The notes under the pieces were generated by a model. It was given only the letters and a program-made list of their open reading frames with translations. It had not been told where the DNA came from and did not search any database. From Myxococcales bacterium (GTDB taxonomy: Bacteria; Myxococcota_A; Polyangia; Polyangiales; Houyiibacteriaceae), in assembly GCA_024640845.1 (NCBI GenBank), contig JAHEEE010000145.1, forward strand, positions 456-64,455: a stretch of 64,000 bases of DNA, read 5' to 3'. The position numbers and the translations under genes were made by a program. Positions 5,255 to 29,313 of this stretch are shown one piece after another. Each line of letters opens with the position of its first letter. Position 1 is the stretch's first letter.

Positions 5255-7465
5255 CTAGTTTCGACCGTCGGCGTGGCAATCTAGGCAGAAGTTGGGGGGC
5301 GCAGGACCACTCGGGTAGTTGCGCACCTCTCTGTGCTTCGGATCCAACTCGCTTCGCGTGTGCTCGCCATCATGGCACCCGACACAGTCGGCGTTCTGGC
5401 CGCCGACCGGCGAGCCCAGTGCCACGTTGTGACAGGACGCGCAGTCGTTGCGGTATCGCGAGTGGGCTCCCGATTGAATCGGGAAAGCGCTTTCGGGATG
5501 GATGCCACCCGTGGCGGGAAGCCACGCCGACGTCGCATGGCAGCCCAGGCAGTCGCCCGTGCCTGGGTGTGTCGTAGTCGTCGGACGTTGTGATTCGTGA
5601 CAGTCGTAGCAGCGGGTCGGCGTCGGAGAATGTGCGAACGCTGACGGTGTCCAGACCGGATACGAGTGATGACAGCTCGCACACTCCGGGTCGTAGGTTT
5701 GCGTATGGAACGGGTTGTTCGAGCGGGGTTCGCTTCCATGGCAGCCGATACAGGTGGCCGGGAGGGGCGTATGAAGTGCCACCGGGTCGGCAAGTGTCCA
5801 GTCGGTGACGACGTGGCAGCCCGCGCAGTCACCGAGGCCCGCGGCAGATTGGTGCGTCGGCGTCGCGGGCCGCAGATCGCCATGGCAAGCGTTGCAGGCG
5901 CTCGGCACGGGTGCGTGAAGGAAGTCAGCCTGTGTCCAATCCGGATAGTTTCGGTGACAGCTGGCGCACTCTGTCTGCGAGACCTGCGTGTGGAAAATCG
6001 TGGGCTGCCGCGGCTCGTTCTGGTGACACGTCAGACAGGATGCCGGAAGCGGCGTGTGGAGAGTCGCCGGGTCCGCTGCGGCCCAGCTCGTGACGAGGTG
6101 GCACGATGCGCAATCGCCCTGGCCCGCCGCGGTTTGGTGTGTGGCAGTGTTTGGCCTCTTGTCCGAGTGGCAGTCTACACAAGTGCTCGGAGCGGGTGCA
6201 TGCGGGAAGTCCGCCAGCATCCAGTCTGGATAGTCGTAGTGGCAGCGGGCGCACTCGGGCTCTACCGACTGGATATGGTAGGTCGTGGGCTCTCGCGGCT
6301 CGGTTTGGTGACACGTCCTGCAAGACGCTGGGAGCGGCGCGTGGAGCGCGTCTGGGTCGGTGATTGTCCAGTCGTCGACGACGTGACAGCGGGCACAGTC
6401 GGCGAGCCCCGCGGCGGACTGATGGGTCGGTGTGCTGGGTCTCAGATCGCGATGACAGTCGCTACAGACGCTCGGCACCGGCAAATGCAGGAAGTCGGCG
6501 GGTATCCATTCCGGATAGGTCCGGTGACAGCGTGCGCACTCCGGTTCGAGGACCTGAGCGTGGAAGATCGTGTCGGGTTGCGAGTCGTTTTCGTGACACG
6601 TGAAGCACGACGCCGGAAGTGGTGTATGGATGGCCTCCGGGTCCGTCGTCGCCCAATCGTCTACGACGTGGCAACCGGCACAATCCGCGCGACCGGCAGT
6701 CGAGTCGTGCGTCGGATCCATGGGCCTCTCTTCGCTGTGGCAGTCGGTACAGGTGCTTGGCACGGGCGCATGAGCGAAGTCGGCGGGTACCCACTCCGGG
6801 TAAGTCTGGTGACAGCTCGCACACTCCGTCTCGACGGACTGAGTGTGGAAGACGGTCTCCGGTAGCGGGTCGTTCTGATGGCACGTGCTGCAAGACGCGG
6901 GCAGGGGAGTGTGAAGCTCCGCCGGGTCCGTGACGGCCCAATCGCTGACGATGTGGCAGGAGGCACAATCCGCCTGGCCTTGCGGCGCCTGGTGCGTCGG
7001 CGTGTCCGGTCTCCGGTCGGAGTGACAGTCCATGCAGACGCGTGTTGCTGGCGCGTGAAGGAAGTTTGCCTGCATCCAATCCGGATAGCTCCGGTGGCAG
7101 CCAGCGCACTCGGTCTCAAGATCCTGAGTGTGGAAGACGGTCTCTTGTCGGGTCTCGTCTGCATGGCAAGAGATGCACGATTCCGGAAGCGGCGTGTGGA
7201 TCGTCGTAGAGACTGCGGGCACCCACTCGCGCTCCGTGTGGCAGTCCTGACAGGTGGTGGGTAGCGTCTCGTGCGGTGGGCTCAGCGCGGCCTTGCGGTC
7301 CGCCTCATGGCAGGTGAAGCATTCGGCTTGGACGATGATGCCAGGCTCGTGAGACGGGGCGGCCGTACCGCTGCAGCCGGCACCGATCGAAGCCCCCGCG
7401 CTGACCGCGAGCACCACAGGCCACACGAGCCGCCGATGGCAACTAACCCCCATGGGTGATATCAT
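5255..7465 (-). CDS. 29-heme c-type cytochrome lipoprotein
   Basis: 736 aa. Signal peptide with lipobox (...SIGAG/C). I counted 29 CXXCH motifs, with extra His at regular spacing consistent with bis-His ligation. Confidence 0.9.
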   Translation of the reverse strand: MISPMGVSCHRRLVWPVVLAVSAGASIGAGCSGTAAPSHEPGIIVQAECFTCHEADRKAALSPPHETLPTTCQDCHTEREWVPAVSTTIHTPLPESCISCHADETRQETVFHTQDLETECAGCHRSYPDWMQANFLHAPATRVCMDCHSDRRPDTPTHQAPQGQADCASCHIVSDWAVTDPAELHTPLPASCSTCHQNDPLPETVFHTQSVETECASCHQTYPEWVPADFAHAPVPSTCTDCHSEERPMDPTHDSTAGRADCAGCHVVDDWATTDPEAIHTPLPASCFTCHENDSQPDTIFHAQVLEPECARCHRTYPEWIPADFLHLPVPSVCSDCHRDLRPSTPTHQSAAGLADCARCHVVDDWTITDPDALHAPLPASCRTCHQTEPREPTTYHIQSVEPECARCHYDYPDWMLADFPHAPAPSTCVDCHSDKRPNTATHQTAAGQGDCASCHLVTSWAAADPATLHTPLPASCLTCHQNEPRQPTIFHTQVSQTECASCHRNYPDWTQADFLHAPVPSACNACHGDLRPATPTHQSAAGLGDCAGCHVVTDWTLADPVALHTPLPATCIGCHGSEPRSNNPFHTQTYDPECASCHHSYPVWTPSAFAHSPTPTRCYDCHESQRPTTTTHPGTGDCLGCHATSAWLPATGGIHPESAFPIQSGAHSRYRNDCASCHNVALGSPVGGQNADCVGCHDGEHTRSELDPKHREVRNYPSGPAPPNFCLDCHADGRN
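5485..7198 (-). repeat. Six tandem ~95-aa tetraheme repeat units inside the 29-heme gene
   Basis: The unit HTPLPxSCxxCH..FHTQ..ExECAxCH..YPxW..A.F.HAP.PS.C..CH...RP..PTH....G..DCA.CH.V..W...DP..L recurs six times. Boundaries are approximate. Confidence 0.8.
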
Positions 7466-7477
7466 AGCCCGAACATG

Positions 7478-7497
7478 ATTAACCCGACTAGGTTAAT
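7478..7497. promoter_or_regulatory. Inverted repeat ATTAACC-N6-GGTTAAT upstream of the 29-heme gene
   Basis: Perfect 7-bp arms in a visibly AT-rich 94-bp gap, 13-32 bp upstream of the start codon at 7465. Confidence 0.3.
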
Positions 7498-7559
7498 TAA
7501 AAGTGCCCCTAGAATCAAAGCCTTACCTCGCTTCGGCCTTCGAAAGATGGAGAGTCTGC

Positions 7560-8345: not shown

Positions 8346-8351
8346 AGATCT

Positions 8352-8864
8352 CTACCTCACCACCAGCCCATCGACGCGGAACTCACCGATCTCGATGCTG
8401 ACTTGCTGGCCCGATTTCACTAGCTGGCCGGGGTTGGCAAAGAACATCCAGTAGGTGCGTCCCTCGATGGGCGCGTTCGAGTTGCGGAGCGCGCCGGTTT
8501 TGGCCGGCGTGGGCACGACGAGCGTTGCGCCCGTCTCCGTGTGGGTCAGCGCCGGCTTGGTCTGGCGCTCGAACAGCGCCTTCGCCTTCTCTGCGTCGAG
8601 CACGCGGTACCGAAACTCGAGCATGTAACCGGCCGCGGTTTGTCGCACGCCCATGAGCTCGACACCCCAGCGGCGCTTGATGTAGGTCTTGTCGCGGGGG
8701 TGGTGGGCCAGCTCGGCCGAGGCCGCTGTCGCAGGGGAGACGGTGGCCTGAGCCGATCCCTCGAGCGCTCGCACTTCGGGCGCGGGTCCAACGAGGGCAC
8801 CGGCGATGGCGAGGCCGACCGCGAGAAACCCTAGGAGCGACCGGGAGAAATGTAGATCCACCAC
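8352..8864 (-). CDS. Secreted hypothetical protein
   Basis: 170 aa with a signal-like N-terminus (LLGFLAVGLAIAGALVG). Coding-like composition. Sits 10 nt downstream of the giant gene. I recognise no motif. Confidence 0.55.
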   Translation of the reverse strand: MVDLHFSRSLLGFLAVGLAIAGALVGPAPEVRALEGSAQATVSPATAASAELAHHPRDKTYIKRRWGVELMGVRQTAAGYMLEFRYRVLDAEKAKALFERQTKPALTHTETGATLVVPTPAKTGALRNSNAPIEGRTYWMFFANPGQLVKSGQQVSIEIGEFRVDGLVVR

Positions 8865-8874
8865 CTAGCCCTCC

Positions 8875-16803: not shown

Positions 16804-16820
16804 GGCTCTTCTCCTCTGCC

Positions 16821-18176
16821 TCACTCGACAATCTCGATCTGGGGGGCTTCGATGATCAGCATGGTCATCATCCCGCCGGGGAAAACGTCGTTGTTCACCA
16901 TCTCGCGCTCGGTGTGCGAGTGCCACATGTACGCAAAGCCTGCGTTTGGATTGAGACCGCCCTCGCCGGGGGGAAGGCCGCCGGCCGCTCCGAGATAGGG
17001 GCTGCCGCCGTAGAAGCCGCCGAAGGTCAGGACGCTCTGACCGGGCAGGGTCACGGGGATCGCCCGGTTGTGGTCGCCGCACCACTCGCGGTAGTTATCA
17101 TCGGTCGCGACACTGTGATATCCGTCCGCGTCGGGGGTGCACGCGCTGCCGTCGCCCGGAGTGTGACCGTACATGTCCCAGCCGAGGTCTTTGCCGGTCC
17201 ACTCGAAGATCGCGTCGACCGTTCCGCCCGGCGCCGACGGAATGGTGAAGAGCAGCGGGCCAGCGAGCTGATTGGCGTCGGTCGCGCTAACGAGCAGGCG
17301 GCCATCACGGGCGAGGACGCGCGCGTGGTTCCCGTGGTGGTGGAAGGGATGCATATGGTGACCCGCGCCCACCACTCGCATCAGCAGCCGCTCGCCAGGG
17401 TGCATGCGCGGCATGCAGTTGTAGGGCTGGCTCGGCAGCAGATCGCGGCCGGCCGCGGACATCGTGTCCGGCGCCGCGCGACCGTTGAGGAGCCAGTACT
17501 CCGGAACGTACGGCTCGGTGATGACGTCGATCGGTCCGGGTCCCGAGGCCTGTAGCTCCGCCGCCCGGTGGATGTCGATGTCCACCTCGCTCAGGAGGAA
17601 CAGGTACTCGCGGTCGAAGCAGGTGCCCGAGTGGCCGTAGGCGGAGGCGGTGCACCCGGCGGCGGGCCCCGCCGGCTCGACGATGAGCGCCCCGTAAAGG
17701 CCCATCTCGACCTGCAGATCCGGTCGCGTGCCGCTGTGATACTGGTAGGTTCCCGGTTCGCCGGCCGTGAAGGTGTAGGTGACGGACCCGCCGAGCGGGG
17801 CTTCCTGGGTCAGGAGGCCCGGCACGCCGTCCGTCGATGTCACTTCGTGACCAGGGAACAGGATCGACACGTTGCCCGCGGCTGCGGGAAGCGCGTTGTG
17901 GAGAGTGACCGTGACTGTCGCACCTTCCGTCACGATCAACGTCGGCCCGGGTAGCTGCATCGGGTCGGCGCCGTCGCTGTAGCCCCACGAGTAGATGGAC
18001 CCGCCGTCCGCGATGGAGATGTAGCCCGCGCTCGCCGTGAGCGAGAACGTTGGGCCGGCCACGCCGTCGATCCCGGCACGTGCGGCTTCAGGAGCCATCA
18101 GCAACACCAACGTGGCGGCGAATGAGAACAACCGGACCACCCGGAAATTTCGCTTCTTTGTCTCGAACCTAGTCAT
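16821..18176 (-). CDS. Two-domain multicopper-oxidase-like protein lacking the type-1 Cu site
   Basis: 451 aa with a signal peptide. Domain 1 motifs are degenerate (ILFPGHEV, YQYHSGT). Domain 2 has a canonical HPFHHHG (HxxHxH), but its last motif reads WHSHTEREM...GGMM where HCHxxxH is expected (Cys to Ser, His to Glu). Confidence 0.85.
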   Translation of the reverse strand: MTRFETKKRNFRVVRLFSFAATLVLLMAPEAARAGIDGVAGPTFSLTASAGYISIADGGSIYSWGYSDGADPMQLPGPTLIVTEGATVTVTLHNALPAAAGNVSILFPGHEVTSTDGVPGLLTQEAPLGGSVTYTFTAGEPGTYQYHSGTRPDLQVEMGLYGALIVEPAGPAAGCTASAYGHSGTCFDREYLFLLSEVDIDIHRAAELQASGPGPIDVITEPYVPEYWLLNGRAAPDTMSAAGRDLLPSQPYNCMPRMHPGERLLMRVVGAGHHMHPFHHHGNHARVLARDGRLLVSATDANQLAGPLLFTIPSAPGGTVDAIFEWTGKDLGWDMYGHTPGDGSACTPDADGYHSVATDDNYREWCGDHNRAIPVTLPGQSVLTFGGFYGGSPYLGAAGGLPPGEGGLNPNAGFAYMWHSHTEREMVNNDVFPGGMMTMLIIEAPQIEIVE

Positions 18177-18186
18177 TGCCGCTCTC

Positions 18187-19449
18187 CTAGTTGATCCGGA
18201 TCTCGGTCATCATTCCGCCGAAGTTTTCGGCGTCGTTTGCCAACTGGTGGAGGTTGGTGGTGTAGAGGAAGTAGGTGCTGCCCGGCGCCAGTCCTGCGGT
18301 GTCGAGGATCACGTCCGCGGACTGACCACCGCCGAGCGTCACCGAGTTGGTTTTGTAATAGAGGTTGTTGCCCCAGTCGTCGCGCAGCAGTCGCGCATCC
18401 AACGCGACCACCTCCATCGGGATCCCGTTCGTGCCCAGTGTGTTGAACTGGGTGACGTTGAGGTTGGAGATGCGGAGCAGAATGCGGTCGCCCGCGTTCG
18501 CCGTGATCAGGCTCGACACCGGTTGCGAGGGTCGGCCATCGGTGGAGAGGACGCCCGCGTTCACGGTGTCCGGGTAGCCACGGCCGTTCAGGAGGAAGTA
18601 GCGGTCCTTCATCCCGGCGAAGGGCAGTGGCTGCACGTTGAAACTGGCGTCGTGGAAGTCGGGGTCGAAGGAGCCGATTTGGATCGGCACTTCGACGTCG
18701 TACCGCGTGGAACCGTCGCCGTCGTTGTAGGCGTACGCGTCGCTCGGAGCGTGACCTACAGGGCAGACACTGCCAGGGACCGCGGGGTCGTCAGCTATGG
18801 TATCGCAGCGGTTCTGCCTCGGCCGCACGTACAGGTTGCCGAGCATCCCCATTTGCATGTGCTCGGTGGCCTCGACGTGGCAGTGGTACATGTACGTACC
18901 GGCGTCCTTGGCGTTGTAGTAGTAGGTGAAACTGGCCCCCATGTTGATCGAAACCGAGGCGTCGGGGACACCGTCGAAGATCGACGCCGCCTGCGGGAAG
19001 CCGTGCCAGTGGATGGTGTGGGGGTCGAACAGATCGGGCCGAAACGCCATCCCGACATTGGTGTTGGTCAGAAAGAGCTCGTCGTCTTCGTCGACCACAA
19101 TCGTCGGAGCCGGACTGTTCGCCGCGAGCATTCCCTGCTCCATGACCCATCCGGGATACTGTTCGGGCGGGACGGGGGCGTCGTCAGGGAGCGCGATCCG
19201 GGCAAAGCTGAAGATGTACTGCTGCTTCTGCGCATCATCGGCCATCGTCACCAGACCGTCGCCTGACGCGACGTGGTCGCACTTGATCCCCGCTTCTCGC
19301 GTCGTGTCGTCGCCGTCGGTGTTCGGGTGCAGGACCGTCTCGGTCGGGCATTGGACGTAGATGTTGCTTTCCTGAGCGCTTGCGGTGGCGGCCACGCACA
19401 GCACGGAGATCACGATGAGCGCCGGCCGGCGCGTGTTTCTCAAGACCAT
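18187..19449 (-). CDS. Two-domain multicopper oxidase with all Cu ligands in domain 1
   Basis: 420 aa. N-terminus ...NTRRPALIVISVLCVAATASA is a possible Tat or Sec signal. HTIHWHG and YHCHVEATEHMQMGM lie in the first cupredoxin domain. The second domain has no His motifs. Confidence 0.9.
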   Translation of the reverse strand: MVLRNTRRPALIVISVLCVAATASAQESNIYVQCPTETVLHPNTDGDDTTREAGIKCDHVASGDGLVTMADDAQKQQYIFSFARIALPDDAPVPPEQYPGWVMEQGMLAANSPAPTIVVDEDDELFLTNTNVGMAFRPDLFDPHTIHWHGFPQAASIFDGVPDASVSINMGASFTYYYNAKDAGTYMYHCHVEATEHMQMGMLGNLYVRPRQNRCDTIADDPAVPGSVCPVGHAPSDAYAYNDGDGSTRYDVEVPIQIGSFDPDFHDASFNVQPLPFAGMKDRYFLLNGRGYPDTVNAGVLSTDGRPSQPVSSLITANAGDRILLRISNLNVTQFNTLGTNGIPMEVVALDARLLRDDWGNNLYYKTNSVTLGGGQSADVILDTAGLAPGSTYFLYTTNLHQLANDAENFGGMMTEIRIN

Positions 19450-19530
19450 GTCACTCGCTCCTTCCCGAAGGAGAGACAGTGCCTGGTTGGCCAGTCTCGC
19501 GTCCCGGCAGGGGTTAAGGAAATCGCGTCA

Positions 19531-19546
19531 GATCTTGTGATCTTGT
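19531..19546. promoter_or_regulatory. Tandem direct repeat GATCTTGT x2 upstream of the MCO operon
   Basis: Perfect 8-bp repeat, 82-97 bp upstream of the MCO start (19449), in the 180-bp gap below the AraC-type gene. Confidence 0.25.
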
Positions 19547-19629
19547 GTACAGGCGGATGCGAAGCTGTGAGCTACCTCACGAGTCGCGGCGGCCCATCGC
19601 CCCTAGGTGATCCCCCGGCAGCAGGCGCT

Positions 19630-20130
19630 CTACAAGGCTGCATCATGAAGCGTCGGTGCGATCTCTTCCCACCGGGGCGGACGTCCTGTGGGGTTCTCAT
19701 GCCAATAGCGGTGCACGATCTTCTTACACTCGTATGGTGTGATTCCCGTGCATTTCTTGAAGGCTCGTTCGAAGGTCCTGAGATCTTTGAAGCCGACGGC
19801 TAACGCCAAGTCGACGATACCATGATCGTGGTTGCTCAGCAGGAGCAGCGCGCGATTGATCCGCTCGCGTGAGAGCCAGTCATGGAAAGAGATACCTACT
19901 TTCTCCCGGAACAACCTGCAGAAGTACGTCTTCTCGAGCGCGACGAGCTTGGCCGCGTCAGCCAGACTGAACGGTTCGTCGAAGTGTTCGTCGACGTGCC
20001 GCTTGATCTTCGCCAAACGCGGGCAGAAGACGAACATGTGCTCGTTGATTGGAGAATCCAGAAGTAGCTGCGCTGCAGACAAAACGGACGACCACCATGT
20101 CCTGAGCCATCCTCTTGGGGGTGGGCCCAC
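19630..20130 (-). CDS. Small AraC-family (MarA/SoxS-like, DNA-binding domain only) transcription factor
   Basis: Double HTH signature (...FSLADAAKLVALEKTYFCRLFREKVGISFHDWL...IVDLALAVGFKDLRTFERAFKK..G.TP). No room for a ligand domain. The start is uncertain: GTG at 20130 or ATG at 20037. Confidence 0.75.
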   Translation of the reverse strand: MGPPPRGWLRTWWSSVLSAAQLLLDSPINEHMFVFCPRLAKIKRHVDEHFDEPFSLADAAKLVALEKTYFCRLFREKVGISFHDWLSRERINRALLLLSNHDHGIVDLALAVGFKDLRTFERAFKKCTGITPYECKKIVHRYWHENPTGRPPRWEEIAPTLHDAAL

Positions 20131-20201
20131 CAGGCGTGGAGAAGCTCACCCGACTTCAAATAGCTGACGCGAAGGTCTTTTTTTTCTTGTTTGGTGTCAA
20201 T

Positions 20202-20217
20202 ACGTAATTGATTACGT
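20202..20217. promoter_or_regulatory. Palindrome ACGTAAT-TG-ATTACGT in an AT-rich divergent intergenic region
   Basis: Perfect 7-bp arms inside the conspicuously AT-rich stretch 20160-20377, between the AraC-type gene and the 8-heme gene. Confidence 0.3.
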
Positions 20218-20377
20218 TATTGTCGACTCGGAGCGATTTTAACTATCTGAATTTCCTTATGACTTCGCGTGTCTTAGGCTTTTTACACGTCTTCGGGGGT
20301 GCGCAGCCCAGCTACCTAAGTTAAGCCTAATGTGCTATTTTCTAAGAGTTCGAGTTTCTCTTATCTGGCGAGTGGCG

Positions 20378-21064
20378 ATGCGACTTATGTGGATCGGGGT
20401 CCTAGGCGCAGTGGTGCTGGCCGCGGCCTGCACGGGCAGCACACAGGACCACGCAAGATTGGAGGTTCGCAGCAGTGATTGCGTCGTGTGTCATGCGGAT
20501 GACGTACAGCACGCGCTCAACCCTCCGCACGAAGGCTTTCCCGACACCTGCGGCAGTTGCCACGGCAACGAGGCTTGGAGCCCGGCGGCGTTCCAGCACA
20601 ACTGGCCTCTCAACGGTGCGCACGCGATGCTCGAATGCGCCGCCTGCCATCTTGGGGACCCACCCGTCTATGCGGGAACGCCTACGTTGTGCGTCGGCTG
20701 CCACCAGGACGACTACGACAGCAGCCCCTTTCCGGGGCACGCCGAGTTTCCAACCACCTGTGAGAACTGCCACACCACGACGGCATGGAGCCCAGCCACG
20801 GGAGGCACCCATCCCGAGAATGCGTTTCCGATCCAAAGTGGGCCGCACTCACGATACCGGGACGACTGCGTCTCGTGTCACAATCCCGAGCTTGGCTCGC
20901 CCGTGGACGGTGAGAATGCTGATTGCGTCGGTTGTCATGATGGACAGCACACACGCGCACAGATGGATCCCAAACACATCGAGGTTGGTGGTTATCCGAG
21001 CGGTGCAGCCCCTCCGAACTTCTGCTTGGATTGCCACGCGGACGGCATCAACCGCGACGACTAA
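20378..21064 (+). CDS. 8-heme c-type cytochrome lipoprotein
   Basis: ATG at 20378 gives MRLMWIGVLGAVVLAAA/C, a lipobox. 8 CXXCH motifs. The C-terminal ~85 aa are homologous to the C-terminus of the 29-heme protein. Confidence 0.85.
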   Translation: MRLMWIGVLGAVVLAAACTGSTQDHARLEVRSSDCVVCHADDVQHALNPPHEGFPDTCGSCHGNEAWSPAAFQHNWPLNGAHAMLECAACHLGDPPVYAGTPTLCVGCHQDDYDSSPFPGHAEFPTTCENCHTTTAWSPATGGTHPENAFPIQSGPHSRYRDDCVSCHNPELGSPVDGENADCVGCHDGQHTRAQMDPKHIEVGGYPSGAAPPNFCLDCHADGINRDD

Positions 21065-22377
21065 GCTTCGCCATACTTGGTGACGATCTCGATGCCGACA
21101 TTCTGAAGCAAGTCGGTCGGAGCCGTACCACCGACTTGGACCACCACAGCGTCGTTGTCGATGGAGATCGGCTCTCGCGACGCGTTCCGAAGCGAGACTC
21201 GATCCTGGAAGATCTCCTCGATCTCGGTTCCCAAAAGCGCCGTCAGCCGGCCGCCCTCGATCTCGGCTTCGATGCGCTTGCGATTCGGTTGACGGCACCT
21301 TGCAAAGGTGTTTTTCCGGTAGCTGATGGTCACCGACGCGCATTTTCCCCCATCGATCAATGCGAACGCGGATTCTACCGCCGCATTGCCACCGCCGACC
21401 ACCAAAACGTGCTGGCCTTGGAATGCCTCCGGCTCGATCACTCGGTAGACCACTTTAGACTGCTCCTCGCCGGGCACGTCGAGCTTGCGCGGAGAGCCAC
21501 GGCGGCCGAGCGCCAACAAAACGTTTGCGGTCTTGAAGACGCCTCCGCTGGATGACACCAGCCAGCTATCATCTGGTCCGCGCTCGATGTGCTGCACGAG
21601 CTCTCCGACCGCGACCTGCAGCCCGGTCTTGTCTCGAATGTCCTCCCAGAGCGTCACCAGTTGCTCTTTGCTCATCTTTCTCTTGGATACGCGGCCGTAC
21701 ATCGGGAAGTCGAGCGCTCCGGTCATCACGACCTTCGCGCGCGGATAGTGCGTGATCGTGCCGCCAAAGGCTTCACGCTCGAGCAGCAGCACACGCAGCC
21801 CCGCCTCCATCAAGCGAAGTGTCGCGCTGGTTCCGGCGGGGCCGGCGCCGACCACGACCGCATCCAGGGACTCGCCTGCGCCCCTGCGATCGCCAGCGAC
21901 GATGTGGTCCGCGGCTTGCCGGCCCTGGGAGACCGCATTGCGAATGAGTCCCATGCCGCCAAGCTCGCCGACGATGTAGATGCCTGGCTGGTTCGTTTGA
22001 AAGTCGGGATCGACTTCGGGCAGCTCGAGACCGCGCTTGGCCGTCCCGAAGACGAGGGAGATGGCCTGGACCGGACAGGCCGATGCACAGGCGCCATGTC
22101 CGATACAACCGAGCGGGTTGGTCAGCACGCCTCTGCCGTTGACCACGGTGAGCACGCTCTTCTCCGGGCAAGCGTAGACGCACGCCCCTGAGCCAATGCA
22201 GCGGAGTGGGTCGATTAGCGGATGAATGCTGGCCGGGACGATGTCGCCCATCGCGCTGAGCGCCTCAAGATCTCGCCGGCCGGTCTCAGTGCGGAGCTGC
22301 TCTCGCTTTTGCAGGAAAAGGCTCAGAATCCACGCAAACGCGACCAAAAAGCCCAGTGCAATCCAGGTGCTGCTCAT
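21061..22377 (-). CDS. Membrane-anchored 2x[4Fe-4S] ferredoxin-domain / FAD-NAD(P) (thioredoxin-reductase-like) oxidoreductase
   Basis: N-terminal TM helix (WIALGFLVAFAWILSLFL). Two cluster motifs: CIGSGACVYACP and CIGHGACASACP. Dinucleotide folds VVVGAGPAG and LVVGGGNAA. Start taken at the ATG at 22377 (the ORF runs to 22407). Its stop overlaps the convergent 8-heme stop. Confidence 0.85.
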   Translation of the reverse strand: MSSTWIALGFLVAFAWILSLFLQKREQLRTETGRRDLEALSAMGDIVPASIHPLIDPLRCIGSGACVYACPEKSVLTVVNGRGVLTNPLGCIGHGACASACPVQAISLVFGTAKRGLELPEVDPDFQTNQPGIYIVGELGGMGLIRNAVSQGRQAADHIVAGDRRGAGESLDAVVVGAGPAGTSATLRLMEAGLRVLLLEREAFGGTITHYPRAKVVMTGALDFPMYGRVSKRKMSKEQLVTLWEDIRDKTGLQVAVGELVQHIERGPDDSWLVSSSGGVFKTANVLLALGRRGSPRKLDVPGEEQSKVVYRVIEPEAFQGQHVLVVGGGNAAVESAFALIDGGKCASVTISYRKNTFARCRQPNRKRIEAEIEGGRLTALLGTEIEEIFQDRVSLRNASREPISIDNDAVVVQVGGTAPTDLLQNVGIEIVTKYGEA

Positions 22378-22444
22378 GAGAAGTTGGCCCTTTTGTGTCA
22401 ATCCCACCCATTTTGGTATGCTGCAAGCGTAACATGCAGGGCGG

Positions 22445-23359
22445 GTGGGGACCCGCTTGCTGTGGGGTAGCGTGGGGACAGAGGCGAAGAGCGGTCGTAA
22501 GCGCCGCGCGGATCGGAGCGCCGTCTTGCTGGTGCTGCTGGGGCTTTGCGTCCTCGGCTACATGCTCTGGGATCTCGGCGAGGACTTCTACCTCTCCGAC
22601 CTTCAGTCGAGGGTCGAGCATGGCGACTACGAAGCACTCCGACCGGGAGGTCTCGTCGGACATGGATACGGCATCGTCGGGACGATCCTGATCCTCGCCA
22701 ATCTGCTCTATCTCGCGCGACGCCGCTTCGCTCGGTGGTCGCTCGGCTCGATGGCGACTTGGCTCAACCTGCACGTCTTCACGGGTCTCGTCGGCTCGCT
22801 CCTGATCCTCTTCCATTCCGCCTTTCAGTTTCGGACACCCATCGCGGTGGTTACCGCGATTAGTCTCGGCGTCGTCGTGGCCACCGGGATCGCAGGCCGG
22901 TATCTCTATGCGCTCACGCCGCGTCCTGACCGCCAGGCGCTCGAACAGGCCCTGGCGTCGTTGGACGAGCTAGCACCCGGATGCAGTGCCCGCGTGTATC
23001 ACGCACTGGCGATTCACAAGGTCACCCAGGTCGACACGCACCGCTGGTTGCTCGCCAAGCTCGCGGCGATCCCCAAGTGGGCGCGCGACGCACGCTCGCG
23101 CGGTTTCATCGTCAGCTACGTCATCGAGGATGCTCCCGTTGCGGACATCCTCCAACGCAAGGAGCGAAGACGCTTTCGGAAGGCAAAGCGGGTGGTCCGC
23201 AAGTACGCAACGCGTGAGGTAGTCGCCACCATGGCCTCGTCGCTGCTTCAGTCCTGGCGCGGGCTTCATAGGTTTCTTGCCTTGATTCTCATTCTGTTGG
23301 TCCCCGTCCACATCGCGGTGGCTTGGATCTACGGCTATCGCTGGATCTTCTCGCAATGA
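22445..23359 (+). CDS. Polytopic membrane protein with two H-x13-H helices (putative di-heme cytochrome b / quinol-interacting anchor)
   Basis: About 5 TM helices. HVFTGLVGSLLILFH and HRFLALILILLVPVH each space two His by 13 residues. GTG start. The stop overlaps the next start (ATGA at 23356-23359). Confidence 0.65.
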   Translation: MGTRLLWGSVGTEAKSGRKRRADRSAVLLVLLGLCVLGYMLWDLGEDFYLSDLQSRVEHGDYEALRPGGLVGHGYGIVGTILILANLLYLARRRFARWSLGSMATWLNLHVFTGLVGSLLILFHSAFQFRTPIAVVTAISLGVVVATGIAGRYLYALTPRPDRQALEQALASLDELAPGCSARVYHALAIHKVTQVDTHRWLLAKLAAIPKWARDARSRGFIVSYVIEDAPVADILQRKERRRFRKAKRVVRKYATREVVATMASSLLQSWRGLHRFLALILILLVPVHIAVAWIYGYRWIFSQ

Positions 23360-24996
23360 GCGGACGCGCCACCGCCTCGATCATCATCGGCGTCGCGATG
23401 CTCGCCGCGGTGGCTGCCGGGGCCTTCGTCCCGAGGAGAACGGGCGCCCAGTTTTTATCGCCAGGGAAGCTCAGCAGCGCGCATGCGGAGATCGATGGCG
23501 ACGCCAACTGTAGCGAGTGCCACTCGACCGGGAGACGACTCGATACCGACTCCTGTCTCGGATGTCACGACGATCTTCGTGCTCGCATCCGGCAAGGACA
23601 AGGGCTCCATAGTCGCCCAGACTATCAGCAGAAGGACTGTGGCGGTTGTCACGTCGAGCACCTCGGGAGAAACGCCAAGCTCGTTCGGTGGCCTGGGGGG
23701 AGCGAAGCGCGGTTCGACCACCGAATGTCCGGCTGGCCGCTCCGAGGCGCGCACGCATCGGTTCGCTGCGCGGAGTGTCACGACGTGCCCAATCGTCGAG
23801 GAAACGCGACATATTTGGGGCTGAGTCGCGATTGCGTCTCTTGTCATGAAGATCCTCACGAGGGCACGTTTGCCGGCGCAGAGTGCACATCGTGTCACAA
23901 CGAAACCGACTGGGCTCAGGTCGACAACGTCCGAGCCAACCATCCCGGTCTGAGCCTCGCCGCCGGGCACGCGAAAACCAAGTGCGAGGACTGCCACGAC
24001 CAGGGCAACGTCGCGCCCCCGAGCATGGGATCTTCCTGTGTCTCCTGTCACGCGCAGGTGCATGATGCTGCGTTTGGCGATCGCTGCGAAAACTGCCACG
24101 CCGGCATTCGTTGGTTGGGTCTTCCGCGCAAGATCGGGTTGCAGGCGCACCCGAAAACAGGGTTCCCGCTCGAGGGGCTGCATCGAGACGCTCCGTGTAA
24201 GGGCTGTCATTCGCCCAAACTCTCGCCGGAGCGTCGCTACCGGCAGCTCGAGTTCGATCAATGCAGCGACTGCCATCGCGACGCCCACCGCGGGACCCTA
24301 GGGAAAGTGGATTGTGCAACCTGTCACGACGAGCACGGGTTCTGGCCAACATTGTTTAGCATCGAGCAGCACGGCCGCACGCGATTCCCCTTGGAGGGGA
24401 AGCATCAGGCGGCGCCCTGCACGAGTTGTCATCAGGGCAAACGGCCCCGCGTCAACCTCGAGCTCGCTGCCAAGGCCTGCGTCGATTGCCATGACAATCC
24501 CCACGGAGCGCAGTTCGCCGATGAGATGCGTTCCGGTGGGTGCGCGACTTGCCATTCGGAACGGGGTTGGGAGTCGCCCCGCATCGACCACAGCACATGG
24601 CCGCTCACCGGGGCCCATTCCGAGGCCGCGTGTGACAGCTGTCACACCCCTTCCAAGCAGGATCGACTGAGCGGTCGCGGAGCGACGTATGCGGGGGCGC
24701 CGCGCGAGTGTTCGGGTTGCCATCGCGACGTTCACGCGGGGCAGTTCCGGCTCACTTCGCCGGAACGAGAATGCGACGCCTGTCACATCACCCAGGCGTT
24801 CGAGATCGATGCCTTCGACCATGCGGAGCTCGCGTCGTACCCGCTCGAAGGCGAGCACGCCGACCTCGAGTGCGTTGCCTGTCACAAGAAGGAGCGTCTG
24901 CGGAGCGGCGCGCGCCCGGTGCGATATCGGCTTGGATACAGCGAGTGCGCCGATTGTCACGCGAACCCGCACGCCCGGAGAAAGGGAGCACGATGA
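23356..24996 (+). CDS. 20-heme c-type cytochrome (periplasmic or membrane-tethered)
   Basis: 546 aa from the ATG at 23356, with an N-terminal hydrophobic segment and 20 CXXCH motifs. F.H.....PL.G.H....C..CH repeats of the c7/c3 style. Confidence 0.9.
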   Translation: MSGRATASIIIGVAMLAAVAAGAFVPRRTGAQFLSPGKLSSAHAEIDGDANCSECHSTGRRLDTDSCLGCHDDLRARIRQGQGLHSRPDYQQKDCGGCHVEHLGRNAKLVRWPGGSEARFDHRMSGWPLRGAHASVRCAECHDVPNRRGNATYLGLSRDCVSCHEDPHEGTFAGAECTSCHNETDWAQVDNVRANHPGLSLAAGHAKTKCEDCHDQGNVAPPSMGSSCVSCHAQVHDAAFGDRCENCHAGIRWLGLPRKIGLQAHPKTGFPLEGLHRDAPCKGCHSPKLSPERRYRQLEFDQCSDCHRDAHRGTLGKVDCATCHDEHGFWPTLFSIEQHGRTRFPLEGKHQAAPCTSCHQGKRPRVNLELAAKACVDCHDNPHGAQFADEMRSGGCATCHSERGWESPRIDHSTWPLTGAHSEAACDSCHTPSKQDRLSGRGATYAGAPRECSGCHRDVHAGQFRLTSPERECDACHITQAFEIDAFDHAELASYPLEGEHADLECVACHKKERLRSGARPVRYRLGYSECADCHANPHARRKGAR

Positions 24997-25910
24997 GGCG
25001 TCTCACAGGCATCCTGCTCTGCGTGACCACTCTCGCGGTGGTCACGGCGATGGCGGTCGCCAAGGAGCCCGGCGAGAAGATCGATCGCTCGAGCGCATCC
25101 CGTCACAACTCGATCACATTGGGCATGGATTGCGGAAACTGCCACACCCCAGATGGCTGGCACATGGCCGGAGGGAAGTCCGGGGAGCGCTTCGACCATT
25201 CTAGAACCGGGTTTCCTCTCTCGGGTCGACACGCATCTGCTGCGTGCAACCAATGTCACAGCGGTGAGCGGCGTGTCACTCGCGAATGCGAGAGTTGTCA
25301 TGAGGACCCGCACCAGTCGCGTTTGAACCGCCGATGCTCGAGCTGTCACTCGTCGCGCCGATGGAACGACATGGGGCCGTTCGAGCTCCATCGGCGGACC
25401 CGGTTCCCGCTCACCGGGATGCATGCGCTCGCCGACTGCACCGAGTGTCACATACGCAACAACGAAAGGCAGTGGACTACGATCCAGAGCGACTGCTTTT
25501 CCTGCCATGCGTCCGACTATCTCGATCCGAATGTTCACCCGAGCCACCGCGGGACGGCTACGTCGCCGCCGTTTCCGCAGGACTGTTCGCAGTGCCATGT
25601 CGCAAGCGCATGGAGTCCCGCGTTCATCGATCCCACCAATCTCGCCTCGCCGGCTGCCGCAGCAGTCAGCGCGAAGCTCGGCGGGATGCTCATCCCGGCC
25701 GACCACGACAGGTCCTTCCCGATTTCGCGCGGTCCGCATCGCGGCGCTCCTTGCAATGGCTGCCACACCTCTTCTCGCGCGCCGAGACTCGTTCTGTGCA
25801 CCGGATGCCACGCCCACAACCCCATCAAGCTCCAGACTCAGCACGGACGCCGGGTGTCTAGCAGTGGGGCCGCTTGCCTCGGATGTCACCCAGGAGGGAT
25901 CGCACGATGA
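24993..25910 (+). CDS. 10-heme c-type cytochrome, soluble periplasmic type
   Basis: ATG at 24993 overlaps the upstream stop (ATGA). Cleavable signal with no lipobox (LAVVTAMAVA/KE). 10 CXXCH motifs. Confidence 0.9.
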   Translation: MRRLTGILLCVTTLAVVTAMAVAKEPGEKIDRSSASRHNSITLGMDCGNCHTPDGWHMAGGKSGERFDHSRTGFPLSGRHASAACNQCHSGERRVTRECESCHEDPHQSRLNRRCSSCHSSRRWNDMGPFELHRRTRFPLTGMHALADCTECHIRNNERQWTTIQSDCFSCHASDYLDPNVHPSHRGTATSPPFPQDCSQCHVASAWSPAFIDPTNLASPAAAAVSAKLGGMLIPADHDRSFPISRGPHRGAPCNGCHTSSRAPRLVLCTGCHAHNPIKLQTQHGRRVSSSGAACLGCHPGGIAR

Positions 25911-27583
25911 CGCGATGGCTCCTGCTCGGATGGGCGGTCTTGGCTCTGCTGGTGTTCTCGCAGGGCGCTCGGGCCGCATCGCGGCAGAGCGTCACTGTGA
26001 AGGTCGTCGACGTCGCGGGTGGGCGAGCGTATCTACGACCCGGTGAGTCCGCCGGTATTGGCGTTGGTTCCGTCGTAACCGTTCGGGGTCGTCGGTACCG
26101 CGTTGCCGGCGCGACCGAACAACACATCGTCGTCGAGATGAAGGAACGCGAGCTCCGAATAGGGATGACCGGAGTGGCTACCGCGAAGCGCCCCGAGGCG
26201 GCACCAGCCGAGCTTCCGACTCCCGAGCCACTGAGCGCCTACGAGGACCAGTGGCCGGACGCCGTCCCCCCCGCAAACGGGCAGACCCCTGAGTACGTTC
26301 CGTTGGGAAACTGGTCCGACCGCCAAAGAGTGGACCTCGCGCTTTCGACGAACGTTGGCGGCGTCATCGGGCTCAAAGAAAGCGAGTCGTCATTCGGGCG
26401 GGCTTCATTGCGCACCCGCCTTCATGCCGAGCCGTTCGAACAGCCCGTCTTCTTCGACGTCGATTTCGCCCTGCAGTCCTGGTTCGGAGGGGGCATCAGC
26501 AACCGTCCGGGCGGCTCGTCGCGACCGCTCGTGCTGGTTCGCGACCTCCAGTTTGGGTACGGCACGGCGCAAAGCGCACAGGTAGGTTTGGGGCGCATGC
26601 CGTTCGTCGCGGTCGGCGTCGGCCAGCTCGACGGGGCGCGCGTGCGGTCCCCATCGTGGGCGGGATTCTCCATCGGCGCTTTCGGCGGCACCTTGCCTAA
26701 TCCCTTGGACAACCTGCCGAGTCTCGAGGCTACCCGTTTTGGCGGAGAGCTCGTCTATCAGAATCTGGCTCTCGACGCTCAGCCCTTCGTCGCGCTTTCT
26801 GCCCATGGCTCAGTCTTCATGGGCAACATCGACGAGCGCCGCGTCAACGCCGAGTTCAGCGTGTTCCCTGGCAACGGTAGTCTGGCCGGTCATTTCGAGC
26901 TCTCGGTTCACGACGAGAACAACATATGGCAAGCGCCAAGGGTTCAAGTCAGCGCCGCTGGTCTGGACGCCTCCGTTCGTATTGGGCTCTTTCAGATCTC
27001 GGGCCGCTTCGACATGCGCTACCCGGAGCGCTCCTTGTGGCTGACGAACTACCTGCCGCTAGGCTACCTGTGCAACACGGTTCCGGATCCGACATCGAGC
27101 AATGGCGACCAGCTGGTCTGCCAGAACAGTAGCGACGCCCGATACTTCGGCGGATTGGACATGAGCTTCTCGTTCTCGCGGCTCGTCCTGCATGCAGGAG
27201 GCAATCTCGTCCACAGCGAGACCGAGGATGAGTTCGAGCAGCTCGCCGGCTATCTCCAGGCGCGAATTCTGCGCATTGCCGAGATCGCCTGGATGGACTT
27301 GTCGGTCGCGGCATACGCACGCTCGTTCGTGTCCGACTACGCCGCCCGCCTCGCGGCGGGCGTCAACATCGGCCAGGCGGGCGAGATCTCCGCATACTAT
27401 CGGGTGTCTCTGAACCAATACAACGCCTCACCCGACAACTTCCTACAGCAGTCGGCCGGTGGGATTTTCTATTGGTCGATCCTGGACGACCTCGATCTTG
27501 GTCTTCGTGTCGACGGCATGTTCGGCGAAGACGTGAGCGTCCTCGTGCTCGGCTCAAATCTGACTTGGCGGCCGTCCTGGTGA
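25907..27583 (+). CDS. Putative outer-membrane beta-barrel (porin-like) protein with small N-terminal soluble domain
   Basis: ATG at 25907 overlaps the upstream stop (ATGA). Signal peptide ...FSQGARA/AS. Long alternating beta-strand-like sequence. C-terminal ...NLTWRPSW. Confidence 0.7.
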   Translation: MTRWLLLGWAVLALLVFSQGARAASRQSVTVKVVDVAGGRAYLRPGESAGIGVGSVVTVRGRRYRVAGATEQHIVVEMKERELRIGMTGVATAKRPEAAPAELPTPEPLSAYEDQWPDAVPPANGQTPEYVPLGNWSDRQRVDLALSTNVGGVIGLKESESSFGRASLRTRLHAEPFEQPVFFDVDFALQSWFGGGISNRPGGSSRPLVLVRDLQFGYGTAQSAQVGLGRMPFVAVGVGQLDGARVRSPSWAGFSIGAFGGTLPNPLDNLPSLEATRFGGELVYQNLALDAQPFVALSAHGSVFMGNIDERRVNAEFSVFPGNGSLAGHFELSVHDENNIWQAPRVQVSAAGLDASVRIGLFQISGRFDMRYPERSLWLTNYLPLGYLCNTVPDPTSSNGDQLVCQNSSDARYFGGLDMSFSFSRLVLHAGGNLVHSETEDEFEQLAGYLQARILRIAEIAWMDLSVAAYARSFVSDYAARLAAGVNIGQAGEISAYYRVSLNQYNASPDNFLQQSAGGIFYWSILDDLDLGLRVDGMFGEDVSVLVLGSNLTWRPSW

Positions 27584-27617: not shown

Positions 27618-28736
27618 GTGGCGAAGACGATTGCAATCCTTACGAGCGGCGGCGATGCGCCGGGCATGAACGCTGCCGTTCGAGCGGCGACGATGGTCGC
27701 GTTGGCAAAGGGCCATCGCATGCTCGGTATACGCCACGGCTATCGCGGTCTTCTCGACGAGAAGATCGCCCCGCTCGAGGCGAACCGTGTCAATAGGATC
27801 TTGCGTGAGGGAGGAACGATTCTCCACTCGTCGCGCTGCAAGCGGTTCCACCACGTCGAGCATCGCGAGCGCGCGCGCGCGGCGCTCACCAAGCACGGCG
27901 TCGATGGCCTGGTCGCCATCGGAGGCAACGGCACGCTCACGGGGCTGACGCTTCTGAGCGATCCGGCCGAAGCCGGCGACTGGCCCGTCCAGTGCATCGG
28001 AATCCCCGCCTCGATCGACAACGACATCGCTCTCACGGGCTTGGCGATTGGGGTCGACACCGCGATGAATACGATCGTCGAGGCCTGCGATCGCATTGCA
28101 GACACGGCCACCGCCCACGGGCGCACCTTCATCATCGAGGTGATGGGACGCGACTGCGGCTACCTCTCGATGACTGCCGCGATTGCATCGGGAGCCAACA
28201 TGGTGTTGTTTCCGGAGGCTGCGCGCACTGAGGAAGAGCTCGTGGCGTCCATGGTGAAGACGATTCTGAGCGTGCGGGAGCATCATCCCGAGGACCAAAG
28301 AGTCGTCGCGATCAAGGCCGAAGGCGTTCCAACTCCTACGGAACGTCTCAAAGAGTTGGTCGATGCGAAGCTCGCCGAGGTCACTGGCGAGGAAGCGCCG
28401 CACGAGGACGACGACATCGAAACACGCGTGACGGTGCTCGGGCACGTGGTGCGCGGGGGAAGACCAAGCGCGTTCGACCGCCTGTTGGGCAGTCGCTTGG
28501 GAAACGTGGCGGTGCGCGCCGTTTTGGCAGGGGAGCACCGAAAGATGGTGTCGTGGCTGCCCCCGATGGATCTCCCCGAAGGCGTGGGCACTCGCTCGCC
28601 CGCGGATCCGTACTGTTACCTCGTCGATCTGCCCGCGGTTCTCGCTGCGACGAAGGCGCTTCTCGAAGGGCAAAGCCCGCTGGCGCGCTGGCGGGCGACG
28701 GCGTTCGACGACCTCGAGGACGTGTTTCTGTTATAA
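27618..28736 (+). CDS. pfkA: ATP-dependent 6-phosphofructokinase
   Basis: Canonical N-terminus IAILTSGGDAPGMNAA, plus IGGNGT and MGRDCGYL motifs. AGGAGG precedes the GTG start. Confidence 0.9.
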   Translation: MAKTIAILTSGGDAPGMNAAVRAATMVALAKGHRMLGIRHGYRGLLDEKIAPLEANRVNRILREGGTILHSSRCKRFHHVEHRERARAALTKHGVDGLVAIGGNGTLTGLTLLSDPAEAGDWPVQCIGIPASIDNDIALTGLAIGVDTAMNTIVEACDRIADTATAHGRTFIIEVMGRDCGYLSMTAAIASGANMVLFPEAARTEEELVASMVKTILSVREHHPEDQRVVAIKAEGVPTPTERLKELVDAKLAEVTGEEAPHEDDDIETRVTVLGHVVRGGRPSAFDRLLGSRLGNVAVRAVLAGEHRKMVSWLPPMDLPEGVGTRSPADPYCYLVDLPAVLAATKALLEGQSPLARWRATAFDDLEDVFLL

Positions 28737-28743
28737 AGAAGAG

Positions 28744-29313
28744 GTGATTCGGCTGTCTTGGGTGGGGTTGGCCTTCGTCGCGGAGGCGCTTGCGTTGCTC
28801 GTCTCACCCGGGGCGTTCGCTCAAGAGGAGCCCGCCGTCCAGATCATCACCGAGCCGCCCAAACCAAAGCTCGGCCAGCTGCGTGTCGCCGGCGGCATCG
28901 GGTTTGGCTTTGGTTCCAACACGCTCTCGTTCGGGGTGTCGCCGCAGCTTTCTTACATCTTCAAGAAGATCGTCGAGCCCGGTGTCGCGATTCGCTATGA
29001 GTACACCAAGGACCGCCTCGTCGTTCCGGAGGCCACCTGGAATACGTTCGGCAGCTCGCTTTTCGTCAGGCTCTACCCGATCCAATCGCTCTTCGTCCTC
29101 GTCGAGGGCGAGCTGATCAACACGGGCTTCAAGCAAGGTGGTTTCAATTCCGGCCGTGCGAACTATGGCAACCTGCTTCTCGGCGGCGGGTACCTCATGG
29201 GGGTTGGCCGGGGCGCATTCGTCATCGTCGCACTCAAGGTGAACGTCTTCCGCAACCCGTTCTACCCGAGCAACATCCCGATCATCGGCTTCGGCGCGGG
29301 CTTCGGCTTCTAG
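28744..29313 (+). CDS. Small outer-membrane beta-barrel protein
   Basis: 189 aa. Signal peptide ...SPGAFA/QE. Gly/aromatic-rich strands. Ends ...GFGAGFGF. Confidence 0.55.
   Translation: MIRLSWVGLAFVAEALALLVSPGAFAQEEPAVQIITEPPKPKLGQLRVAGGIGFGFGSNTLSFGVSPQLSYIFKKIVEPGVAIRYEYTKDRLVVPEATWNTFGSSLFVRLYPIQSLFVLVEGELINTGFKQGGFNSGRANYGNLLLGGGYLMGVGRGAFVIVALKVNVFRNPFYPSNIPIIGFGAGFGF

Follow-up and report, generated by a model that had tools for sequence, protein, structure and literature searches.

A Myxococcota gene cluster encoding a candidate trans-envelope electron conduit linked to a ferredoxin-flavoprotein

Results

We analysed a 64,000-nucleotide stretch of a Myxococcales bacterium genome (assembly GCA_024640845.1, contig JAHEEE010000145.1, positions 456 to 64,455; hereafter the window), which carries a cluster of genes for multiheme cytochromes, a membrane cytochrome, a flavoprotein and a beta-barrel that may together export electrons from the cytoplasm to the cell surface. 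Four genes on the forward strand form its centre. They encode a predicted inner-membrane di-heme b-type cytochrome resembling DUF4405 proteins (22445..23359), a periplasmic cytochrome c with 20 hemes in c7-type triheme modules (23356..24996), a 10-heme periplasmic cytochrome c (24993..25910) and a predicted outer-membrane beta-barrel of ~22 strands (25907..27583). On the reverse strand beside them lies the gene for a membrane-anchored flavoprotein with a ferredoxin domain and a domain binding flavin adenine dinucleotide (FAD) and nicotinamide adenine dinucleotide (phosphate) (NAD(P)) (21061..22407), followed by a forward-strand gene for an 8-heme c-type cytochrome, a predicted lipoprotein (20330..21064, probable start 20378). 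An earlier account drawn from the letters alone (the sequence-only reading) had located three ATGA start/stop overlaps joining the four central genes, at 23356-23359, 24993-24996 and 25907-25910, and these coordinates were reproduced exactly. Four-base overlaps are frequent in GC-rich operons and unremarkable on their own. The 20-heme/10-heme and 10-heme/barrel gene overlaps recur in two Sandaracinaceae loci (L001 and L003) at 36-53% protein identity, the overlap of decaheme and barrel genes being kept at 36%. Shine-Dalgarno-like GGGAG and AGGAGG sequences stand upstream of the third and fourth gene starts, respectively. The view that the four genes are a co-transcribed set for a trans-envelope electron path is supported; as a unit, however, the four genes proposed earlier are too few, as the 8-heme and flavoprotein genes are co-conserved with them, making six or more.

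The divergent leader region between the flavoprotein and membrane cytochrome genes (22378..22471) contains CCCTTTTGTGT, TAACATGCA and a hairpin, all conserved in an alignment of 19 close relatives. The hairpin, GCGGGT-GGGG-ACCCGC at 22441-22456, overlaps the start of the longest open reading frame (ORF) at 22445. Translation probably begins at GTG 22472 in the membrane protein, giving a length of 295 aa that matches many homologues, and at ATG 22377 in the flavoprotein (438 aa). A promoter/terminator scan found no sigma-70 consensus in the leader, and inspection of the conserved intergenic region 22378-22471 by eye found no Fur- or FNR-like box.

The membrane cytochrome, 295-304 aa in length, carries HVFTGLVGSLLILFH (H110/H124) and HRFLALILILLVPVH (H275/H289). 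In the sequence-only reading the protein had two transmembrane (TM) helices, each with one H-x13-H pair; both His pairs are present, but five TM helices are predicted, with the pairs on TM3 and TM5. The AlphaFold2 (AF2) model has a predicted local distance difference test (pLDDT) score of 82 and places helices at residues 24-50, 70-94, 103-126, 132-157 and ~268-302; between TM4 and TM5 lies a basic insert of ~110 residues, predicted to face the cytoplasm. The motifs read W106-x3-H110-x13-H124 on TM3, T147-G-x-x-G151 on TM4 and W271-x3-H275-x13-H289 on TM5. Across 28 homologues, the most distant at 44% identity, H59, H73, H110, H124, H275 and H289 never vary. A family profile search of 1.84 billion cluster representatives returned 3,028 members at E<=1e-3, 238 of them at E<=1e-30, and from the clusters, formed at 50% identity, the 144 best representatives that were new served as the family set. 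The four His of the two pairs are almost without exception in this set (H110 in 137/138, H124 in 139/139, H275 in 124/124 and H289 in 123/123), as are W106 (136/138) and W271 (125/125). The TM4 motif [T/S]147-G148-x-x-G151, with S or T at position 147, is found in at least 132 of 136 representatives, and H59 and H73 are retained in ~60% only. The His pairs, whose conservation the sequence-only reading had made a test of its case, are therefore kept across the family.

The distribution of Lys and Arg residues (6 in the N-terminus, 4 in the TM2-TM3 loop and 22 in the insert, against 2, 1 and 1 on the opposite side) points to an N-in/C-out topology. H110/H275 would thus lie towards the cytoplasm and H124/H289 towards the periplasm, a placement to be expected of two stacked hemes. 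Pfam DUF4405 (PF14358) matches 20 of 29 homologues at E<=0.01 (best E 2.5e-8); the window protein itself scores 14.6 bits, below the gathering cut-off of 26.7. Other homologues are recognised by the Ni_hydr_CYTB, Ferric_reduct or PepSY_TM models, which all belong to the clan of two-heme b cytochromes. By these matches, the membrane cytochrome appears to be a divergent branch of the DUF4405/cytochrome b561/FRD clan. Heme b binding has been shown for a purified DUF4405 protein (PMC11334425). The earlier proposal that the H-x13-H spacing is of the b-heme type agrees with the four invariant His and with the apparent place of the family among the heme-b proteins of the DUF4405/ferric-reductase clan. 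When the PDB was searched with a profile from the membrane-cytochrome alignment, the only matches were spurious ones to designed armadillo repeats, made via the helical insert.

The flavoprotein consists of an N-terminal TM helix, a two-cluster ferredoxin domain and a FAD/NAD(P)-binding domain, with Pfam matches to Fer4_10 and Pyr_redox_3/2. The helix is without a twin-arginine motif and its downstream flank is positively charged. Two dinucleotide-binding motifs are present. Its closest counterparts in the PDB are ferredoxin-NADP reductases of the thioredoxin-reductase type and YpdA (7a76, 2zbw, 5ygq, 3ab1). Identity as a thioredoxin reductase (TrxR) or as YpdA was rejected, as no CxxC, i.e. 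no redox-active disulfide, is found outside the ferredoxin domain and the scores are far below the cut-offs (136 bits versus 340 for YpdA, 67 versus 343 for TrxR). We read the protein as a probable NAD(P)H:Fe-S module with NADH or NADPH as its donor. Its ferredoxin motifs CxxSxxCxxxCP and CxxHxxCxxxCP, which in the window are CIGSGACVYACP and CIGHGACASACP (residues ~69-112), are conserved. The His at the second Cys position is kept in all orthologues in which the second motif was found, and only Planctomycetota and a few distant loci have Cys in place of the motif Ser. The motifs thus hint at a cluster that is His-ligated or of 3Fe type, at the point where electrons would leave the module.

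In 21 of the 144 representatives, the ferredoxin-FAD module is in the same chain as the membrane cytochrome, in both domain orders, and Pfam confirms both architectures. The membrane cytochrome comes first in L071, L073, L075, L077 and P0298; in the four loci, the membrane protein, an extra TM helix, and the ferredoxin and flavoprotein domains follow one another in one ORF of 734-762 aa. The reverse order occurs in a 740-aa ORF of Planctomycetota (L076, L080) and in many proteins of Myxococcaceae and Archangiaceae metagenome-assembled genomes (MAGs). The named members of one fusion cluster are from Archangium and from Archangiaceae and Myxococcaceae MAGs, and their annotation is only "NAD(P)-binding domain-containing protein". 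Both orders set the Fe-S/FAD module on the side of the Lys/Arg-rich loops of the membrane protein, that is, its cytoplasmic side. One further metagenome protein in ENA (P0286, 867 aa; 1 of the 144) joins the membrane cytochrome to a 7-heme cytochrome c. Of all the observations, these fusions, which flank the membrane protein on either side, speak most strongly for the identity of its electron donor and acceptor, and because of them we place the start of the path in the cytoplasm at NAD(P)H, not in the inner membrane at the quinone pool. Another flavoprotein fusion, P0321 (873 aa), has an FHA domain between its ferredoxin and FAD domains, which hints at phospho-dependent regulation.

Nearly all homologues of the membrane protein and of the barrel belong to MAGs of uncultured Polyangiales and other Myxococcota (e.g. 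Myxococcales bacterium SG8_38 and Sandaracinaceae). A locus scan with one genome per species returned 80 loci, in which the six window proteins were then placed by tblastn. All six genes occur together in nearly every locus with enough flanking sequence, in Polyangiales, Sandaracinaceae, Polyangiaceae and Haliangium, and distant loci of Kofleriaceae, Nannocystaceae and Planctomycetota retain the oxidoreductase, the membrane protein and cytochromes. Linkage was counted over 54 loci, all non-redundant, in which the membrane protein is full-length and 2 kb or more of upstream sequence is available: the flavoprotein gene is within the locus in 51 of them, directly adjacent in 35, and in most of the rest of these 51 separated only by the lipoprotein cytochrome gene. 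The Sandaracinaceae MAG locus L001 holds six co-directional genes, for a multiheme cytochrome, a ferredoxin and FAD/NAD(P) oxidoreductase, the membrane protein, multiheme cytochromes of ~600 and ~315 aa, and a 557-aa protein without a Pfam match; here the oxidoreductase stop overlaps the membrane-protein start. The arrangement in L003, like L001 the locus of a distant membrane-protein homologue, is that of the window, with the oxidoreductase gene divergent. The conserved gene set holds no periplasmic catalytic subunit.

The 20-heme protein (546 aa) contains 20 CxxCH motifs and 42 His, at ~27 aa per heme, and the 10-heme protein (305 aa) contains 10 CxxCH motifs and 23 His, at ~30 residues per heme. 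Both heme counts had been given correctly in the sequence-only reading, and the His counts are enough for bis-His ligation of every heme in either protein. Pfam finds repeated cytochrome c7/c3 modules in both, with 8 Cytochrome_C7 stretches in the 20-heme protein. The orthologues of the latter have 20 or 23 hemes and share a conserved N-terminus, Q(L/F)LSPGxLSxxH..EGD..CxxCH, following the signal peptide; the 10-heme protein has a signal peptide ending AVA|KE, and the ten hemes are kept in decaheme orthologues from ~50 loci. In several lineages, the 20/23-heme and 10-heme proteins are fused in one frame of 33-36 hemes, which argues that the two act in one compartment and in series. The 20-heme protein has no sequence relative in the PDB, and the same search with the decaheme gave only marginal matches to nine-heme cytochrome.

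The product of 25907..27583 has a signal peptide, a small N-terminal beta domain (residues 26-94), a disordered Pro-rich linker and a predicted barrel of ~22 strands starting at residue 142; its C-terminal residue is Trp. Its AF2 model, made from a 39-sequence alignment, has a pLDDT of 82 overall and ~90 over residues 142-558, and all top Foldseek matches of the barrel are outer-membrane barrels (MOMP, OccK porins, FimD/PapC ushers and AlgE, E 1e-10 to 1e-7). The barrel prediction, on which the earlier account had staked its case for this gene, therefore comes out in its favour at the level of models. No Pfam, NCBIfam or PDB sequence match was found for the barrel (the PDB being searched with the 39-sequence profile at E<=1), and its homologues are confined to the same type of cluster.

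The 8-heme protein, with 8 CxxCH motifs and 18 His, has a conserved hydrophobic stretch ending in Cys (LAAAC|TGS). Its distant orthologues have classic lipoboxes (LAGC, LSGC, VGC) and 5-23 hemes, and the gene is present in nearly all related loci. A second lipoprotein multiheme cytochrome is encoded on the reverse strand at 5255..7465. This protein has 29 CxxCH motifs, the lipobox IGAGC, internal repeats, and c3/c7/MtrC-like Pfam domains, and is a paralogue of the 8-heme cytochrome with which it has a C-terminal module in common. In L010, L013, L017 and L021, a full-length orthologue (74-76% identity) is the direct divergent neighbour of the 8-heme gene; on account of this conserved neighbourhood we place the 29-heme protein in the system. 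By analogy with MtrC, we infer that the lipoprotein cytochromes are at the cell surface, where the 8-heme protein is a candidate outer-surface partner and the 29-heme protein would probably be the exposed end of the conduit.

In the window, a block of ~12.9 kb (7466-20329) lies between the 29-heme and 8-heme genes. It contains a 261-aa ORF, a 2,736-aa secreted protein (with Cu-oxidase, Laminin_G_3, cadherin/Big_9 and beta-helix domains), two multicopper oxidases and an AraC regulator, and its GC fraction is 0.66-0.67 versus 0.60-0.64 nearby. None of these genes, the multicopper oxidases included, occurs in any related locus examined. The block resembles an insertion specific to this lineage, an island within the electron-transfer locus, and the adjacent multicopper oxidases were rejected as conserved functional partners. 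On the other flank (27618-29313), a phosphofructokinase gene begins 35 bp past the barrel gene; in relatives it is ~2.8 kb off. It is followed by a gene for a 189-aa signal-peptide protein, Gly/aromatic-rich, with the C-terminus GFGF and no Pfam match, possibly a small outer-membrane barrel.

Discussion

From gene content, motifs, conservation, fusions and predicted folds we infer cofactor occupancy, subunit contacts, flow direction, donor specificity and the external acceptor. Taken this way, we hold it somewhat more probable than improbable that the locus specifies a conduit for the export of electrons across the envelope, with its input in the cytoplasm and not, or not solely, in the quinone pool. 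The membrane-anchored flavoprotein would oxidise NAD(P)H at its FAD and pass electrons through two Fe-S clusters, one of them with the conserved His in a Cys position, to the cytoplasmic-side heme b (H110/H275) of the five-helix membrane cytochrome. Electrons would then cross the membrane to the periplasmic-side heme b (H124/H289) and enter the 20-heme cytochrome, which could serve as a periplasm-spanning wire. From there they would reach the 10-heme cytochrome, presumably lodged in the ~22-strand outer-membrane barrel, and finally the surface lipoprotein multiheme cytochromes (the 8-heme and probably the 29-heme protein), which would reduce an external acceptor. Beyond the two b hemes, the path would run over ~40 c-type hemes. 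The sequence-only reading had proposed a complete path from inner to outer membrane; its trans-envelope course stands, whereas its starting point is displaced by the fusions, which indicate cytoplasmic NAD(P)H.

Outward electron flow through a passive two-heme wire is favoured by the inside-negative membrane potential, and NAD(P)H is a low-potential donor; on both grounds the flow is likely to be outward. Such flow would draw down the membrane potential instead of building it, as in NOX. The pathway therefore looks unlike a coupling site, and redox balancing, the reductive mobilisation of iron or chemistry outside the cell are likelier roles for it than respiration.

Several observations weigh against cytoplasm-fed export. 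For every member, the evidence consists of gene sequences and predictions. Foldseek found no significant PDB match for the whole-chain model of the membrane cytochrome (best E 0.37, to BAR domains), so that membership in the FRD/b561 families is unproven at the level of the fold. The Sec-type signal of the decaheme does not distinguish a location inside the barrel from one outside it. No flavoprotein gene is found within 10 kb in 3 of the 54 loci. In addition, a MAG labelled Nitrospira sp. carries a minimal version (L078:348-3077), in which a five-helix WX3HX13H homologue is followed by a 24-heme cytochrome with very regular repeats, and flavoprotein and barrel are absent nearby. Given these three loci and the minimal relatives of the L078 type, the membrane protein appears able to use other donors, possibly quinol. 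Lastly, sending electrons from NAD(P)H out of the cell with no energy conserved is costly, and any benefit is putative.

The same relatives without a flavoprotein lend some weight to a quinol-fed conduit, in which the five-helix di-heme protein oxidises menaquinol in the manner of a cytochrome b subunit and hands the electrons to the periplasmic cytochromes, and the flavoprotein plays an accessory part, e.g. in regulation or repair, or adds a minor second input. The H-x13-H pairs do resemble those of quinone-reactive cytochromes b, a role proposed for the inner-membrane proteins of PCC3/PCC4 clusters (He et al. 2017, PMC5566968), and the weak Pfam matches include Ni_hydr_CYTB. Yet the flavoprotein linkage is near-universal (51/54 loci), the fusions occur in both domain orders in 21/144 representatives, and the topology puts the Fe-S module beside the heme on the cytoplasmic side; nor did a quinone-site motif come to light, though there was none to test for specifically. 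We therefore regard quinol as the main input as unlikely, and retain export fed from the cytoplasm as the better account.

Running the path inward is less probable still. External Fe(II), Mn(II), reduced minerals or humics would then be oxidised and the electrons passed by way of the membrane cytochrome to the quinone pool or to the flavoprotein, which would make NAD(P)H, in line with the reversibility of Mtr-type conduits, the multicopper oxidase island inside the window locus, and the occurrence of PCC3/PCC4 clusters in Fe(II) oxidisers, for which an oxidation role was proposed (He et al. 2017, PMC5566968; PMC10734462). However, established bioenergetics is against it: inward flow through two hemes opposes the inside-negative potential, reduction of NAD(P)+ by Fe(II) or Mn(II) is uphill, strongly so with Fe(II), and no coupling device is visible in the locus. 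The hosts are Myxococcota MAGs, not known lithotrophs, and the multicopper oxidase island is in no related locus. The remaining alternative, that electrons never cross the outer membrane and the cytochromes are a periplasmic sink or capacitor or serve a periplasmic reductase, with the barrel an ordinary porin or export channel sharing the operon, draws on the lack of detectable sequence homology between the barrel and MtrB/PioB and on the putative nature of the barrel-cytochrome contact, but it is very improbable given that the barrel gene is found only in these clusters and overlaps the decaheme gene (an overlap held at 36% protein identity), that lipoprotein multiheme cytochromes are co-conserved, and that the conserved set is without a periplasmic catalytic subunit.

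To our knowledge, all characterised Gram-negative extracellular electron transfer (EET) routes draw on the quinone pool. If the cytoplasm-fed export reading is right, a conduit fed by an NAD(P)H-flavoprotein would be a different entry point, one that decouples metal or electrode reduction from respiration-linked energy conservation. Carried further, and here we are tentative, judging the following rather less than evenly probable, the locus may represent a bacterial equivalent of NOX or ferric reductases wired to a porin-cytochrome complex, widespread in Myxococcota and some Planctomycetota, which moves electrons from NAD(P)H to the surface independently of quinones and with the assistance of the membrane potential. 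This would be a fourth inner-membrane entry to EET beside CymA, ImcH/CbcL and Ndh2/EetAB. Its possible uses include redox balancing in anoxic sediment, reductive iron mobilisation and the generation of reactive species. The family is large (~3,000 clusters at 50% identity) and common in sediment and soil Myxococcota, and may contribute to iron and carbon cycling. A conduit fed by the flavoprotein would also give a testable function to the "conserved inner membrane protein" of PCC3/PCC4 clusters, described in 2017. The natural flavoprotein/Fe-S/di-heme b fusions are compact parts that could be expressed and assayed, and are perhaps suitable for wiring engineered cells to electrodes. The flavoprotein link is the part worth testing: neither it nor the Myxococcota system is described in the literature we searched on porin-cytochromes, multiheme clusters and quinone-independent EET.

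Among known systems, the closest is the PCC3/PCC4 kind, known from genome prediction only, whose clusters combine a porin, many-heme cytochromes and a ~300-aa "conserved inner membrane protein" whose five TM helices include a WX3HX13H motif in both TM3 and TM5 and SGXXG in TM4 (He et al. 2017, PMC5566968). The window membrane protein has every one of these motifs (with S or T at position 147), the ~300-aa size and the five TM helices, and its cluster likewise holds a porin, multiheme cytochromes and the membrane protein. Judged by motifs and gene content as described there (PMC5566968), the window cluster is a variant of this predicted kind. The conduit had been called non-canonical in the sequence-only reading; it does stand outside the Mtr/Pio systems, but is not unprecedented, the PCC3/PCC4 design having been described (PMC5566968). 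HX13H was found only in He et al. 2017 in the literature searched. The differences lie in hosts, cytochromes and partner. The hosts here are Myxococcota, with Planctomycetota relatives, rather than Fe(II)-oxidising Proteobacteria; an extra decaheme stands between the 20/23-heme protein and the porin; and the partner is a full ferredoxin and FAD/NAD(P) flavoprotein, often fused. In PCC4 subgroup II, an Fe-S gene adjoins or is fused to the membrane-protein gene (PMC5566968), and FAD/NAD partners are not mentioned in the supplements of that study. In PCC3 clusters, each periplasmic cytochrome carries 21-27 hemes, and its extracellular counterparts vary and are rich in repeats, according to the original study and a survey of Gallionellaceae (PMC5566968, PMC10734462). 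He et al. proposed a quinone-active cytochrome b for the inner-membrane protein, drawing on the quinone pool (PMC5566968), whereas here the often-fused flavoprotein partner makes a cytoplasmic donor the likely input.

MtrCAB, PioAB and MtoAB share the porin-cytochrome logic, with a decaheme gene directly before the barrel gene and a lipoprotein multiheme cytochrome as the likely surface partner. The sequence-only reading had noted that the order mirrors mtrA-mtrB and pioA-pioB; the order holds, but no homology to Mtr or Pio proteins is detectable. Membership in the MtrA/DmsE family (TIGR03508) was rejected for both cytochromes (no match at E<=0.1 for the 10-heme protein, 38.7 bits versus a cut-off of 192 for the 20-heme protein), and the decaheme has no PDB sequence match to MtrA. 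We propose that the decaheme is an analogue of MtrA, not a homologue, inserted in the barrel. Membership in the MtrB/PioB family (PF11854) was likewise rejected for the barrel, which is without a Pfam or PDB sequence match and has the fold of a generic outer-membrane barrel. The solved structure of MtrB has 26 strands, compared with ~22 predicted here. The inner-membrane entry is not CymA. The expectation that the components differ from CymA, ImcH and CbcL was borne out by Pfam, NCBIfam and PDB searches, which found no Mtr/Pio members either.

The Geobacter proteins CbcL and ImcH, with the Pcc/Ext conduits, likewise pair a b-type cytochrome in the membrane with multiheme cytochromes of the periplasm, and the c-type fusion P0286 resembles CbcL; CbcL and ImcH are, however, quinol oxidases of other folds. 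The Tmc and Hmc complexes of sulfate reducers also link cytoplasmic Fe-S proteins to periplasmic cytochromes c across the membrane, but with subunits of HdrD/HdrE type and no outer-membrane module, and the window proteins score far below the cut-offs of the NCBIfam HmcA, TmcA, QrcA and ExtN/O models.

The mechanism proposed here is most readily compared with NOX, FRE and MsrQ-Fre. Family membership in NOX/FRE was rejected, the Ferric_reduct (PF01794) score being 15.1 bits versus a cut-off of 28 and the dehydrogenase being of the Pyr_redox_3/2 plus Fer4 type. The dehydrogenase is thus TrxR-type with a ferredoxin domain, in contrast to the FNR-type FAD_binding_8/NAD_binding_6 module of NOX and FRE, and the predicted acceptor is a chain of multiheme cytochromes rather than O2, Fe(III) or MsrP. 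In each case, nevertheless, electrons would pass from NAD(P)H through a flavin to a stack of two b hemes, for which TM3 and TM5 each supply a pair of His, and on to an acceptor at the far side of the membrane. The single-chain fusions of flavoprotein and heme domain mirror the NOX architecture, and by their Pfam matches the heme domains fall in the same clan. By this analogy, the system may work like NOX, though not as a member of its family, with a multiheme conduit at its far side.

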